A DNA stretch of 64,000 nucleotides from a virus, in the IMG/VR virus record IMGVR_UViG_3300037507_005588, positions 25,823-89,822 of that record; one strand, given 5' to 3'. Both the position numbers and the translations under genes were made by a program. The notes beneath the pieces were generated by a model that was not told where the DNA came from, searched no databases, and worked only from the letters and a program-made list of their open reading frames with translations. This document shows, in pieces, positions 3,987 through 25,903 of this stretch. Positions within the stretch are counted from its first letter, which is position 1. Every line of letters begins with the position of its first letter.

Positions 3987-4264
3987 TTATTGGTTTTGAT
4001 TGGTTCTAAGATATAGGATGTAAAAATCGGATTCAGTGTCCCAAAATGTCCACCTATGATGTTGAAGGAAAAGTAGTCAGTTGCCTCATCCTCCGTCATT
4101 CCATCATTTTGAAGCAAAGTCAAAATTTTATTGGTATCATATAGTACTCTTAGACCCTCAAAACTTTGAACCAATCCTATGATTGCGGATTCCATACCAT
4201 CTAACAAAATGATATTTTCATCCAAATCTCCAATATCTAAATAATCAAGTTCAGTTTGATTCAT
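3962..4264 (-). CDS. Conserved phage hypothetical protein
   Basis: DGMESAIIG..YD..KI..DGMTEDEATDYFSFNIIG pattern. Confidence 0.6.
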   Translation of the reverse strand: MNQTELDYLDIGDLDENIILLDGMESAIIGLVQSFEGLRVLYDTNKILTLLQNDGMTEDEATDYFSFNIIGGHFGTLNPIFTSYILEPIKTNNHWKFLLR

Positions 4265-5034: not shown

Positions 5035-5478
5035 TCAAGTTTTCTGAATGAACTTTGTTAGATTTTTCAAACGATTACCCTTAATGTACTCTCGCACTTG
5101 ATTGTAAGGGAGCCAAAAGTCAAAAGTTCCAACTTCTTCTACTCGTTTATTTACACTCTCACGGAAAGATTCAACCTCTTCAACTGAGTTTAGATACTTC
5201 AACCCCAAGTATTTTGAACAGGTTGGTCCCACTCCGACCAACATTGAGAGGTCTTGTTTCAAAGTCTTGTTGCAACAACGACAAAGTTTTCCGTTGTCTT
5301 GAGTCATTTTTGCAACGACACGAATACCATCCTTGTTTGCTTCAATCGCTGAGAGAACGTCAACAACGATTGGGTGGAAGTTCAATCCTTTGGTGTTTCG
5401 GATTGATAATGCTACTTTGCGCTTCAACTTAATGGTTTCATTGTTGAGCGAGATTTCGATTTTCTTCATTTGTGACAT
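5035..5478 (-). CDS. Zinc-finger protein (DUF6011-like)
   Basis: CRCCNKTL...SMLVGVGPTC; TATCTTTG promoter at 5501-5508 (-). Confidence 0.55.
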   Translation of the reverse strand: MSQMKKIEISLNNETIKLKRKVALSIRNTKGLNFHPIVVDVLSAIEANKDGIRVVAKMTQDNGKLCRCCNKTLKQDLSMLVGVGPTCSKYLGLKYLNSVEEVESFRESVNKRVEEVGTFDFWLPYNQVREYIKGNRLKNLTKFIQKT

Positions 5479-19091: not shown

Positions 19092-20135
19092 TCATTTAGC
19101 CTGTTCGATTTCCGAAAGTTGATTTTGGAAAATTTGTATTTGTAATCTATAATAAAGAATTTTCTGATTCAAATCCAAAATTTCTTTGGAGTTTTTGTTC
19201 CTAATCAAAGAGTTATCTGTTTGATTCAACATTTCATTTTCTAATTCGGAAATTTTTTTCTGCACCGATAAAATGTTGTTTTTATACAAAAGAGTTTTTC
19301 TATTCAATTTATCTATGTCAAAGAGGTGTCGACGTTCTTCATCAGTCATATCGTTGTGATAGTAATGTGCTTTAACATTTGACAATCCATACGGGGGAGT
19401 CCCAAAACAAAAAACAAAATTGGAGGGGAGTGTAAAACCTCTTTTCACCAAAGATTCATTAAGTTCGTTGATATATCCTGTGTTTTTTGGGTGCGGATTC
19501 TCAAATTCATACCCGAACATTTTAATATCTAAATCGAATCTATTTGCAACGATTTCTTTTGTTTCATCCGTATAATATTGTTTATAATCTCTATCTTTTT
19601 CGTTCAAATATGACTCGTTGGTCATAGGTAGAAAACTATCTTTTAACTTCAAATGAGTTGAAATTAAGTCAAAATCCTCATTGAGTTTTTCAAAAGCACC
19701 AATAAAGTTGACAATAAATTTACCACTCTCATCAATTAGATAATACGTTTGAGGTGTGCGGTTACTATAATAACAAGTTCTTAACCATTCCAAATCTACA
19801 TGAGGGTCATTGGTAGGTAATCTATCTTGCATCTGTAAAATATTTCCATTGAATTTCCAATTTATGAATTCATCAAATGTCATATCGATATTCTTATTCC
19901 TGACATAATACCTCCAACAAGAAACTTGGAGGTCCCATGGATTTCTTACAAAAGCAAATTTGAATAAAGATTCAAAAAAAATTGGTTCCAACCAATCACG
20001 GTATTGGACGGATAGAGCGTGAGTTAATTCGTGATACAAAAATTCTGTATACGAATGAAGTGAGTCTTCAATTGAGGACCCAGCCGTTTTTGGGATATGA
20101 ATAAAAAGAAACGGAGGGTCAGTAGATAAAACCAT
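19092..20135 (-). CDS. Sulfotransferase (Sulfotransfer_2 family) with C-terminal coiled coil
   Basis: FIHIPKTAGSSI, FAFVRNPWD..VS, DIKMFGY. Confidence 0.85.
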   Translation of the reverse strand: MVLSTDPPFLFIHIPKTAGSSIEDSLHSYTEFLYHELTHALSVQYRDWLEPIFFESLFKFAFVRNPWDLQVSCWRYYVRNKNIDMTFDEFINWKFNGNILQMQDRLPTNDPHVDLEWLRTCYYSNRTPQTYYLIDESGKFIVNFIGAFEKLNEDFDLISTHLKLKDSFLPMTNESYLNEKDRDYKQYYTDETKEIVANRFDLDIKMFGYEFENPHPKNTGYINELNESLVKRGFTLPSNFVFCFGTPPYGLSNVKAHYYHNDMTDEERRHLFDIDKLNRKTLLYKNNILSVQKKISELENEMLNQTDNSLIRNKNSKEILDLNQKILYYRLQIQIFQNQLSEIEQAK

Positions 20136-20156
20136 AAAAAAAATATCGTCAAACTA

Positions 20157-20187
20157 TTTGACATGTAAAATAAATTTTATAACTTTG
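20157..20187 (+). promoter_or_regulatory. Bacteroidota-type sigma-A promoter for leader peptide/tRNA operon
   Basis: TTTG 20157-20160, 19-nt spacer, TAACTTTG 20180-20187. Confidence 0.75.
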
Positions 20188-20205
20188 TGGTATAATTATA
20201 AAGAT

Positions 20206-20304
20206 ATGAAAACGCACGTTCAAAATATTGTAGGTTTTATGATTGATGTCATTTGTCAAAAATGGTTTCAGCGTCCTATATTTAGTTCGGGTATTTTCAT
20301 GTAA
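20206..20304 (+). CDS. Putative attenuator leader peptide MKTHVQNIVGFMIDVICQKWFQRPIFSSGIFM
   Basis: 32-codon ORF between promoter and terminator; its 3' part carries the antiterminator strand. Confidence 0.7.
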   Translation: MKTHVQNIVGFMIDVICQKWFQRPIFSSGIFM

Positions 20305-20357
20305 ACTACAAAGTTAACAAAATATTACAACCCGAACTCACAAGGTTCGGGTTTTTT
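20284..20357 (+). terminator. Attenuator: antiterminator (20284-20292 with 20330-20338) versus terminator (20329-20357)
   Basis: AGTTCGGGT and GTTCGGGTT both complement ACCCGAAC(T); U-tract follows terminator. Confidence 0.75.
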
Positions 20358-20370
20358 GTTTTATCTTTGT

Positions 20371-20387
20371 AAGTTCTTTGACATATT
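20371..20387 (+). promoter_or_regulatory. boxA-like antitermination element
   Basis: AAGTTCTTTGACATATT just upstream of tRNA-Phe. Confidence 0.6.
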
Positions 20388-20398
20388 AGTAGCCATAA

Positions 20399-20471
20399 GG
20401 TATTGTAGCTCAGTTGGTAGAGCACCAGACTGAAAATCTGGGTGTCACTGGTTCGATTCCAGTCAGTACCA
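20399..20471 (+). tRNA. tRNA-Phe(GAA)
   Basis: CCAGA-CTGAAAA-TCTGG. Confidence 0.95.
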
Positions 20472-20479
20472 CAACAAAC

Positions 20480-20553
20480 AGGCATTTAGCTCAGATGGTT
20501 AGAGCACCTCGCTGATACCGAGGGGGTCGTAGGTTCGAGTCCTACATTGCCTA
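20480..20553 (+). tRNA. tRNA-Ile(GAT)
   Basis: CCTCG-CTGATAC-CGAGG. Confidence 0.92.
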
Positions 20554-20557
20554 CAAA

Positions 20558-20630
20558 GACTTCTTAGCTCAGCTGGTAGAGCAATACACTTTTAATGTAT
20601 GGGTCCCGAGTTCGAATCTCGGAGGAGTCA
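20558..20630 (+). tRNA. tRNA-Lys(TTT)
   Basis: ATACA-CTTTTAA-TGTAT. Confidence 0.95.
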
Positions 20631-20634
20631 CAAA

Positions 20635-20709
20635 GCACCCTTAGCTCAGTTGGTTCAGAGCATCTCGTTTACACCGAGAGGGTCGGGAGTTCGAGTCTCT
20701 CAGGGTGCA
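20635..20709 (+). tRNA. tRNA-Val(TAC)
   Basis: TCTCG-TTTACAC-CGAGA. Confidence 0.95.
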
Positions 20710-20738
20710 CTTTCAAATTTTTTTCTTATATTTGTATT

Positions 20739-21329
20739 ATGAAAGAATTAATCTTAGAACGTGTCACAAACACTTTGGTTGATTTTCAAATTGACGAAGG
20801 TTCAGAACAGAGAACCGTTGGAGATTTGATTGAATACCAAATCAAACAAATCATCATGGGACTCAAGGACTCCAACTTGGTGAGAGAATGTTTGGAACCA
20901 CGTAGCAAAAAATCAATTGAAGATGTGACTTTGATTGGGGTCGACAATATAACAAATTATATTGACACAAAAACCCACGATGTTGATTCTGAATTTTCAA
21001 TGCCAAATTTAACATCCGTTGAAAAAATCCGAAAGTTACTTTTGGATGATTCCAAATCATTAATCTACGTGTTCGTTTCTTATAAAAAAGAAAACAATAT
21101 TGTCACAATTCAAAAAATCCAAGTAAAATATATTTGGGAAATTGACTTCTCAATTCTTAGAATTGGTTCATTGGGAAAGGGACAACTTCAAATTTCAGAT
21201 ATGAATAAAGAATTGGTCTTCACCGAAGAAGGAAAAGTATCTTGGTTTGAAAAACTCAAATCCAAAGTTCGAGAATATCATCAAGATAGAATCAATCAAA
21301 TCGAAAAAGACAAATTGTCTTGGTTATAA
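20739..21329 (+). CDS. PD-(D/E)XK nuclease-like protein inside the tRNA cluster
   Basis: GDLIE...IEDV...YIDTKT; own promoter TATATTTG 20727-20734. Confidence 0.55.
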   Translation: MKELILERVTNTLVDFQIDEGSEQRTVGDLIEYQIKQIIMGLKDSNLVRECLEPRSKKSIEDVTLIGVDNITNYIDTKTHDVDSEFSMPNLTSVEKIRKLLLDDSKSLIYVFVSYKKENNIVTIQKIQVKYIWEIDFSILRIGSLGKGQLQISDMNKELVFTEEGKVSWFEKLKSKVREYHQDRINQIEKDKLSWL

Positions 21330-21331
21330 AT

Positions 21332-21406
21332 GGTGGATATAGTTCAGTTGGTTAGAACGTCTGATTGTGGTTCAGAAGGTCGTGGGTTCGAATCCCATTA
21401 TTCACC
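21332..21406 (+). tRNA. tRNA-His(GTG)
   Basis: G-1, TCTGA-TTGTGGT-TCAGA, C discriminator. Confidence 0.95.
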
Positions 21407-21411
21407 CAAAT

Positions 21412-21485
21412 GGTCTTGTACCCAAGTGGTTTAAGGGAGCGCTCTGCAAAAGCGTCAGTCGTCAGTTCGAATCTGACCGAGACCT
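21412..21485 (+). tRNA. tRNA-Cys(GCA)
   Basis: GCGCT-CTGCAAA-AGCGT, U discriminator. Confidence 0.95.
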
Positions 21486-21491
21486 CAATTT

Positions 21492-21562
21492 TACCCTCTC
21501 GTATAATGGCAGTACAAGCGGTTTTGGTCCGCTGAATTGGGGTTCGAGTCCCTGGGGGGTAA
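21492..21562 (+). tRNA. tRNA-Gln(TTG)
   Basis: AGCGG-TTTTGGT-CCGCT. Confidence 0.9.
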
Positions 21563-21567
21563 CAATT

Positions 21568-21638
21568 GCGTCCATAGTGTAATGGTAACATCACGGTCTC
21601 CAAAACCGTTGTTCTAGGTTCGAGTCCTAGTGGGCGTG
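21568..21638 (+). tRNA. tRNA-Trp(CCA)
   Basis: ACGGT-CTCCAAA-ACCGT. Confidence 0.95.
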
Positions 21639-21719
21639 CTAAAAGTTATGATGTATAAGAACCCAATTTTGTTGTTGGAACAGAAAGGATAACAATCCCT
21701 TCGGGGACATTATCTCATC

Positions 21720-25332: not shown

Positions 25333-25404
25333 TTTGGAAATTAGAATACTTATTGTATCTTTGTAGGGTTGAAACGGGGATAACACCCCGAAGGTCTTTG
25401 AAAT
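25333..25404 (+). promoter_or_regulatory. Promoter, boxB-like hairpin and boxA-like element of tRNA cluster
   Basis: TTTG 25333, TATCTTTG 25356-25363; CGGGG-ATAACA-CCCCG 25375-25390; GGTCTTTGAAAT 25393-25404. Confidence 0.6.
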
Positions 25405-25420
25405 GTTGGTGAAAAAAGTT

Positions 25421-25753: not shown

Positions 25754-25903
25754 GGTTGGTAGTACAAAGCGTAGGTTGACAGACTGAGAGAGCAGTTCGC
25801 AAGGGTACACACTAAGAATTCTATTTCTCTCTAATGGTGTGTGAAGTTAGGCCATTCCGAGGTTGCTAAACGGGATTCCTGATAAAGTCAACTACTACCA
25901 ACC
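25754..25903 (+). ncRNA. Candidate multi-stem structured ncRNA of unknown family
   Basis: 11-bp closing stem GGTTGGTAGTA/TACTACCAACC, GTTGAC/GTCAAC, internal hairpins, trailing T run. Confidence 0.55.

Follow-up and report, generated by a model that had tools for sequence, protein, structure and literature searches.

A predicted leader-peptide attenuator whose codons match the tRNA array behind it in a lake-water phage of Bacteroidota

Introduction

Among described systems, the closest kin of the element reported here are the enterobacterial leader peptides, both the single-amino-acid leaders of trp, his, leu and pheA and the multivalent leaders of ilvGMEDA (Ile/Leu/Val) and thr (Thr/Ile). 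The element lies in a window of 64,000 nucleotides (nt), positions 25,823 to 89,822 of the IMG/VR virus record IMGVR_UViG_3300037507_005588, where a putative promoter, a 32-codon open reading frame (ORF) and an intrinsic terminator stand ahead of eight transfer RNA (tRNA) genes. With the enterobacterial leaders it shares a short 5' ORF, an intrinsic terminator before the genes, and an alternative helix on the terminator's 5' arm that a ribosome at the end of the ORF would mask; it also shares codons that would report the supply of charged tRNA and, with the multivalent leaders, several amino acids in a single leader. Unlike them, the phage element would control tRNA genes rather than biosynthetic enzymes, and in place of runs of regulatory codons the phage leaders hold up to 14 amino acids, mostly with one to a few codons each. 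Unlike them too, it has no anti-antiterminator that we could find, its predicted default is readthrough, a boxA follows its terminator, and its setting is phages of Bacteroidota. The phage leader resembles the enterobacterial ones neither in sequence nor through any Rfam model.

Three other kinds of system invite comparison. In Escherichia coli, pheST/pheM is a leader-peptide attenuator of synthetase genes. A His leader likewise stands before hisS paralogues in bacilli (PMC2965389). As in these synthetase leaders, a leader peptide would here control a gene of the translation apparatus by the decoding of cognate codons, but they serve one synthetase and one amino acid, whereas the phage element would serve many tRNAs at once, the products feeding back directly on decoding of the leader. 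T-box riboswitches also sense tRNA status and choose between antiterminator and terminator before translation-related genes; they bind uncharged tRNA directly, have no ORF, and carry a specifier loop and a conserved T-box sequence, whereas the reader of the phage element would be the ribosome. Finally, boxA/Nus antitermination of rRNA (rrn) operons offers a motif match at 20373-20391 and a comparable site between a promoter and untranslated RNA genes, although the phage boxA lies 2-35 nt behind an attenuator terminator and before tRNA arrays.

Full-text literature searches gave no account of an attenuator ahead of tRNA genes, whether phage or cellular. A 2010 survey knew leader-peptide systems only from Proteobacteria and Actinobacteria, and added Firmicutes (PMC2965389). 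Why and when phages use their own tRNAs is a long-standing question, and the roles proposed for them include codon compensation and escape from tRNA-targeting defences (PMC10264068; PMC11464382). From the sequence and its relatives, we think it likely that the locus is a ribosome-mediated (leader-peptide) three-strand transcription attenuator, combined with a boxA, that raises transcription of the phage tRNA array when the codons of that array are decoded slowly. The class of mechanism is already known; what is new is the tRNAs as regulated product, the catalogue-like leader, and the setting in phages and in Bacteroidota.

Results

Architecture of the locus

The core features, in window coordinates, are as follows.

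20157-20187, plus strand: putative Bacteroidota-type promoter, assigned by the known Bacteroidota consensus; TTTG(ACA) at 20157-20163, a 19-nt spacer, and -7 box TAACTTTG at 20180-20187
20206-20304, plus strand: leader ORF of 32 codons, MKTHVQNIVGFMIDVICQKWFQRPIFSSGIFM*, with stop codon TAA at 20302-20304
20284-20292, plus strand: antiterminator strand AGTTCGGGT, codons 27-29 (S-S-G) of the leader, complementary to 20330-20338
20329-20362, plus strand: intrinsic terminator (the attenuator), with a stem of 10 base pairs (bp); 5' arm 20329-20338, 5-nt loop 20339-20343, 3' arm 20344-20353
20373-20391, plus strand: boxA-like element GTTCTTTGACATATTAGTA, rrn-type, between the terminator and tRNA-Phe
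20399-20710, plus strand: tRNA-Phe(GAA), Ile(GAU), Lys(UUU) and Val(UAC), called by ARAGORN
21333-21639, plus strand: tRNA-His(GUG), Cys(GCA), Gln(UUG) and Trp(CCA), called by ARAGORN

An earlier note on this DNA, made from its letters alone, had reported the promoter, the 32-codon ORF, the terminator and the eight tRNAs, and reading the sequence directly finds each of them where that note placed it. The 9-nt complementarity it described is likewise exact, AGTTCGGGT at 20284-20292 being the reverse complement of ACCCGAACT at 20330-20338, and the amino acids of the eight tRNAs (F, I, K, V, H, C, Q, W) do make up 20 of the 32 leader residues. The boxA at 20373-20391 is an addition to that description. 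The leader stop codon lies 24 nt before the terminator stem, the T-tract starts at 20354, and TTTTGTTTT follows the 3' arm.

The source is a lake-water phage of Bacteroidota, whose DNA is present in lake-water metagenomes from many studies. The record of which the window is a part is 89.8 kb long (by estimate about 30% complete) and carries a large terminase and 25 tRNA genes called by ARAGORN.

A set of related modules

A search pattern built on the three strands of the window recovered 12 other viral contigs, all with the same order of Bacteroidota-type promoter, ORF of about 31 codons, three strands, motif TTCTTTGACRTRTTGGTA and tRNA-Phe. That pattern fixes the strands themselves, so the downstream motif alone was used as the next probe, and it was found ahead of tRNA arrays in more than 111 viral contigs. 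A probe combining the T-run and boxA matched 58 viral contigs, but only 4 contigs in a collection of bacterial and archaeal genomes that covers 185,579 species with one genome per species. Relatives sought through the flanking proteins (the 196-residue ORF described below and a sulfotransferase) were not found in viral contigs, and blastn of the region against GenBank phages gave matches only to the tRNA parts of unrelated phages.

For comparison we used a non-redundant set of 39 modules with a hairpin and T-run directly before boxA, in which the terminator is therefore present by design of the search. They fall into 18 leader families, most of them unrelated in sequence. Nonetheless, 38 of the 39 have an ATG-initiated ORF of 23-39 codons that starts MK, MT or MR and stops 18-34 nt before the terminator stem; the exception, L149, has the end of an ordinary protein gene at this place and no complementary strand. 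In 29 of 39 modules the 75 nt ahead of the leader ATG contain a TAnnT[TA]TG box, with 14-46 nt between box and ATG, and boxA begins 2-35 nt (median 9) after the terminator.

An alternative pairing kept across unrelated families

Each family has, in the last codons of its ORF, a stretch of 7-13 bp that is complementary to the 5' arm of its own terminator, and the sequences involved are family-specific. Five examples are given here.

Window family: ORF strand AGUUCGGGU; terminator arm ACCCGAACU
L131 family: ORF strand AGUUCAGGGUUCU; terminator arm GGAAACCCUGGACU
L165b family: ORF strand GGAGAUGG; terminator arm CCAUCUCC
L215 family: ORF strand CUUAGGGU; terminator arm ACCCUAAG
L217 family: ORF strand GAAUCAGGU; terminator arm AGCCUGAUUC

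Measured against dinucleotide shuffles of the upstream region, this complementarity has a combined p of 4e-10 by Fisher's method; in the window family, RNAduplex gives the duplex -15 kcal/mol, against -6.7 to -8.0 for the shuffles. The comparison of the three strands across relatives that the earlier note had proposed thus finds them kept under differing sequences, with the antiterminator always in the last codons of the ORF. A further candidate, that the S-S-G codons are preserved in L131 through synonymous compensatory changes, was dropped, as the true L131 ORF lies in another frame.

The folds of the nascent RNA suggest which form comes first. When the untranslated leader is folded up to the terminator loop, the minimum free energy (MFE) structure includes the antiterminator helix in 16 of 17 families, and in the window this helix is the MFE structure, at -15.0 kcal/mol. 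Once the whole segment 20275-20358 is present, the terminator form reaches -19.3 kcal/mol compared with -17.0 with the antiterminator enforced. Because the untranslated leader already folds into the antiterminator, the default would be readthrough, and termination would need a ribosome that travels through the ORF. The spacing is suited to this: the antiterminator strand ends 10 nt before the stop codon in the window and, across families, 1-31 nt (typically 4-17) before the end of the stop codon, so near that a terminating ribosome would be expected to cover it, while the terminator itself would stay clear of the ribosome, its stem being 18 nt or more from the stop. The geometry had been likened to trp/his-type attenuation. 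The ribosome coupling implied by that comparison is supported, but the nascent folds give a switch of three strands rather than the four of trp.

Leader codons match the tRNAs behind them

The tRNA arrays were defined blindly, as same-strand tRNAs of which the first lies at most 90 nt from boxA and with gaps of at most 150 nt. So defined, the arrays of 15 family representatives comprise 73 amino acids, and all 73 are found in their own leaders, the start Met excluded. Wider gap limits give coverage of 79/79, 112/112, 119/120 and 137/138, the single miss being an internal Met. When arrays were permuted among leaders, neither the observed coverage nor the observed fraction of leader residues belonging to the array set was reached in 20,000 trials (p<5e-5), and with one representative per superfamily the permutation still yields p = 4e-5. 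The match is also specific to the reading frame: the other five frames of the same DNA cover only 46-54 of the 73 and have 19-24% in-set residues, against 36.8% in frame. The extent of the match is best appreciated from arrays that have little in common.

L087: array Phe Ile Gln Lys Val Tyr Cys His Arg Trp Leu Asn; leader MKLVNKQIVKHVIQFCQNWYIRLF-ASSGVLS
L200: array Ser Asp Val Glu Thr Lys Met Ala Gly Leu; leader MKNTMTYRLEVVKTKMEGADSLQPDLRVYCNR
L165: array Thr Leu Glu Asp Leu Gly Ala; leader MKNLNNILNARTEGDNPTVTEMV
L114: array Lys Val Trp Tyr Ile Pro Gln His; leader MKTYNIHTQNISQKDFYPVWGMFWLGE

In L087, for example, every one of the 23 residues after the Met is an array amino acid, and none of the 12 is missing from the leader.

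The match extends from amino acids to anticodons. A strictly cognate leader codon exists for 73 of 75 tRNAs, and for all 75 if U34 four-box wobble is allowed. For Leu, Ser, Arg and Ile, 81 leader codons fall in the isoacceptor class of the array and 14 in the other class. All 10 leaders with tRNA-Arg(ACG) behind them encode Arg by CGN, which makes up 33% of the Arg codons in the phage's genes, and Leu is UUA or UUG in 4 of 4 codons before tRNA-Leu(UAA). The relevant variable therefore looks like decoding by particular tRNAs, and not only the identity of the amino acid.

The position of the codons fits the proposed switch as well. For every one of the 73 amino acids, its leader has a codon whose end is 9 nt or more ahead of the antiterminator strand, so that a ribosome stalled there would leave that strand free; in the window, leader codons 2-22 already include one for each amino acid of the eight tRNAs. 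The run V-I-C-Q-K-W-F-Q at codons 15-22 (20248-20271), which the earlier note had singled out, is present, but what is conserved is a core C-x-x-W-(Y/F)-x-R and not the run as a whole. The window and its relatives also supply two anecdotes, which are not statistics: the window array lacks Tyr and Leu, and the window leader lacks both as well, with W-F where relatives have W-Y; and neither tRNA-Glu nor Glu codons occur in L208, whereas both occur in L215.

Statistics confined to the window point the same way. When the long ORFs of the phage itself are sampled in pieces of 31 residues, a piece contains the full set of eight array amino acids with P = 0.005 and at least 20 in-set residues with P = 0.0008, and a run of at least eight in-set residues was met in none of 200,000 sampled pieces; only one (0.4%) of the 238 small ORFs of the genome meets both composition criteria. 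The record of 89.8 kb contains four copies of GTTCGGGT, where about 0.5 per strand would be expected, and two of the four lie 60 nt apart at the locus. These figures exceed chance and are suggestive, yet post hoc; the comparison with relatives is the real test. Sequence and comparison together show which parts the locus has, how these are ordered and spaced, that an alternative pairing exists, and that leader codons match the tRNAs.

Discussion

A model for the array gate

The general pathway can be outlined as follows. Transcription would start at the 20157-20187 promoter, and ribosomes would load on the 32-codon leader as RNA polymerase proceeds. If decoding is smooth, the ribosome at the end of the ORF would cover AGUUCGGGU (20284-20292), the hairpin at 20329-20353 would form, and transcription would stop before the tRNAs. 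Consider, by contrast, a ribosome that is delayed at any earlier codon, or a leader that is not translated at all: the AGUUCGGGU strand would stay free and would pair with the 5' arm of the terminator once that is made, the terminator would be blocked, and the polymerase would continue. Having passed the terminator, it would transcribe boxA, probably gaining host Nus antitermination factors as on rRNA operons, and then the untranslated array. Each array tRNA has at least one codon in the leader, and the circuit would therefore report the supply of exactly those tRNAs; the phage's own tRNAs would provide negative feedback and close the loop. This scheme presumes that the leader ORF is translated, that the ribosome occludes the strand, that the response runs in the predicted direction, and that Nus factors bind. 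The earlier proposal that a stall frees the antiterminator while full translation allows termination gains support from both comparative tests, its direction of response being a prediction.

The assignment of boxA comes from its context in host genomes. The phage sequence TTCTTTGACATATTAGTA at 20374-20391 resembles a host-type rrn spacer boxA, and if a single mismatch is tolerated, the sampled Bacteroidota genomes have one to three copies of the motif each. These copies are located in the 16S-23S spacer, downstream of the two spacer tRNAs and some 100-140 nt ahead of the 23S rRNA. From this position we take the motif to be the spacer boxA of rRNA operons. By analogy with those operons, the phage copy would recruit host Nus factors (NusB/NusE) and make any polymerase that has passed the attenuator resistant to termination over the untranslated array.

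Extending the model beyond the window, we regard it as fairly probable, though with less assurance than for the locus itself, that freshwater Bacteroidota phages of a large clade use a modular "codon catalogue" leader as the gate before every tRNA array they carry; on this leader the host ribosome would sense a shortage of decoders, and the phage would transcribe replacements, which would then shut the array off. The causes of such a shortage could include a mismatch in codon usage, host shut-off, starvation or tRNA-cleaving defence; the trigger by anticodon nucleases to which the earlier note had linked the locus is a conjecture.

Points against the model and a general translation sensor

Several observations weigh against this model. 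No anti-antiterminator (pairing of strands 1 and 2) was found in the folds of the window and of 17 families; such a structure is a trait of the trp type and not of every attenuator. No report of leader-peptide attenuation in Bacteroidota was found in the literature. In the window, 12 of the 32 leader residues lie outside the array set, including an Arg CGT codon whose tRNA is elsewhere (29278), and most regulatory codons are single or few, not in runs as in the his, phe and thr leaders, a point that bears on the response to partial depletion. The tracking of array changes within families is not significant: among close relatives with differing arrays, the leader count of the amino acid gained or lost is equal in 47 comparisons, higher in 10 and lower in 5. 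Thus, of the covariation of peptide and tRNA content that had been anticipated, the match at the level of amino acid and anticodon class across families is there, but close relatives do not follow recent changes of the array; since they mostly keep their leader counts, either the match is not maintained over short periods, or leaders change more slowly than tRNAs relocate within genomes. Finally, two candidate promoter boxes in the window allow ways around the terminator: the attenuator might possibly be bypassed in this phage from TATCTTTG at 20362-20369, and TATATTTG at 20728-20735, before the inserted ORF, could serve tRNA-His to tRNA-Trp.

Part of this evidence would be expected if the same hardware served as a general sensor of translation status, reporting how active ribosomes are in general (as affected by host shut-off, a shortage of ribosomes or the phase of infection), the codon match having come about incidentally, through common ancestry or the codon usage of the phage. 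A readthrough default without translation, mostly single regulatory codons, the 63% of leader residues overall that lie outside the array set, and the failure of close relatives to adjust the leader when the array changes all agree with such a sensor. It does not account for a coverage that is complete (73/73, up to 137/138) and far above that of permuted pairs, that is tied to one reading frame, and that reaches the isoacceptor class (81 against 14 codons, with Arg CGN in 10/10 leaders), nor for arrays as different as Ser-Asp-Val-Glu-Thr-Lys-Met-Ala and Phe-Ile-Gln-Lys-Val-Tyr-Cys-His-Arg-Trp-Leu-Asn each matching their own leaders. We consider the general sensor unlikely, though it fares best among the alternatives.

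A leader rather than a functional peptide

Whether the peptide itself matters bears on the two remaining alternatives. Within families, the frame, the position of the stop, the ATG-AAA start and the strands are kept, while the codon columns show 63 amino-acid-changing against 19 synonymous-only cases. Free change of the peptide under a kept frame, stop and set of strands argues that the ORF is a leader and not a functional micropeptide.

At the same time, a start of the form MK-x3-(K)H and a core C-x(0-2)-W-Y-(P)-R recur in the otherwise unrelated leaders of L087, L103, L124, L205, L220, L202 and the window (where the core reads C-Q-K-W-F-Q-R), whatever their arrays. This recurrence could reflect common descent, an efficient context for initiation, or a programmed slow spot. 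It is also what would be expected of a non-ribosomal or peptide-specific switch, operated by an RNA-binding protein, by uncharged tRNA in the manner of a T-box, or, as in TnaC, by an arrest motif in the nascent peptide (C-x-x-W-Y-P/x-R) that responds to a small molecule. Such a switch is very improbable: the core is wholly missing from several families, MKNLHIITLLGADLEAGDITMVMV and MKTTMTYRLEVVKTKMEGADS... among them, and the frame-specific codon match would be left unexplained. Rfam, moreover, recognises no family at threshold in the window leader, the best leader hits being Thr_leader RF00506 with 19.8 bits (threshold 55) and Trp_leader RF00513 with 16.6 bits (threshold 41), and a T-box riboswitch has no Rfam match in 20100-20420 even at E<=10.

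The candidate promoter boxes lead to the last alternative. In the gap that separates the terminator from boxA, at 20362-20369 on the plus strand, stands a possible secondary -7 box, TATCTTTG. A TTTG is missing at the -33 distance, and transcription initiated from this box would begin inside boxA. A TAnnTTTG box between terminator and boxA is absent from 37 of the 39 modules, the exceptions being the window and its nearest relative, L084; where it is absent, transcription of the tRNAs must therefore pass the terminator. A supply of tRNAs only from a downstream box, which the earlier note had named as evidence against its reading, is therefore not found in those 37, and the window and L084 do carry the box. 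That the ORF is an independent small gene, a micropeptide with its own promoter and an ordinary terminator, that the tRNAs arise from a separate promoter (TATCTTTG, 20362-20369) and that the repeated GTTCGGGT is a remnant or chance is likewise very improbable in spite of the box in these two modules and of a conserved core (C-x-x-W-(Y/F)-x-R) and N-terminus that could mean peptide function, given the lack of a box in the short gaps of the other modules, a complementary strand that changes together with the terminator in 16 of 17 families, a peptide that is nearly unconstrained, and a composition that follows the tRNAs behind it.

Implications

If the attenuator model is right, this would be the first attenuator with tRNAs as its regulated products, and a direct, multiplexed autoregulation of tRNA supply. 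In this context, phages would not simply express their tRNAs; they would make them on demand, and the leader would serve as a ready-made reporter of the tRNAs that are limiting during infection, making the question of their use testable. Leader-peptide attenuation would thereby be extended to tRNA genes, to phages and to Bacteroidota. The combination of a promoter, an ORF that is a list of codons, a three-strand switch and a boxA is also a compact design for synthetic biology.

Neighbouring features and further observations

Two further features complete the description of the locus.

19092-20135, strand opposite to the leader: gene upstream of the leader promoter
20739-21329, plus strand: ORF of 196 amino acids inside the array

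The upstream gene is divergent, and the leader promoter would therefore serve only the small ORF and anything past the terminator. The 196-residue ORF matches Pfam PF22081 (SwaI-like) with E=1e-4 and 22.5 bits, below the cut-off of 27, and has no PHROG match; by this similarity it is possibly a nuclease, and possibly mobile. Relatives such as L087 have an uninterrupted array, for which reason the ORF is probably a secondary insertion, and the His, Cys, Gln and Trp codons of the leader fit an ancestral array that was continuous.

In contigs of four metatranscriptome runs, only the tRNA stretches within 20397-20710 are covered, mostly by other organisms, and one 151-nt contig is identical to the window over 20416-20566; the leader is uncovered, so these data are uninformative on its expression or termination.

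No further complete module was found in the same genome. The sole other boxA-like site, at 25394-25411, has a hairpin and no leader ORF; it belongs to a second, unattenuated boxA unit of the same phage (window 25350-25411), in which the region ahead of tRNA-Leu(UAG)/Tyr contains a TATCTTTG promoter box, then a GGGG-ATAACA-CCCC hairpin, then the boxA variant GTCTTTGAAATGTTGGTG. Outside the window, a terminator AACCCTCACTCACAAGGTGGGGGTT with the loop of the attenuator, CTCACAAGG, was considered at G000:C1:13929-13957 (minus strand) and rejected as an ordinary gene end with no adjacent leader or boxA.

Some relatives depart from the common layout. The leader ORF of L083 (1549-1720, minus strand) stops with TGA immediately before the antiterminator strand rather than running through it, and a tRNA-like sequence that ARAGORN does not call lies between terminator and boxA. 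In L114, about 100 nt separate boxA (4095-4112, minus strand) from the first tRNA (Lys), a space that may represent another small RNA of the operon. In the MKNLHIILLGGLAIAEDRSYKEMV leader family (L211 285-1000, L233 and L226), boxA is followed by a TAnnTTTG box and a protein ORF and only then by the tRNAs (Met, Ile(UAU), Gly, Glu, Asp), so that the same gate can precede mixed units of protein and tRNA genes. Lastly, L087 carries a tRNA with a CUA anticodon (5291-5363, minus strand; 'Pyl' in ARAGORN, of the amber-suppressor type) just upstream of the leader promoter, and L087, L088 and L089 have tRNA-like genes with odd anticodon loops; these odd tRNAs may hint at TAG recoding or at decoys in the relatives.

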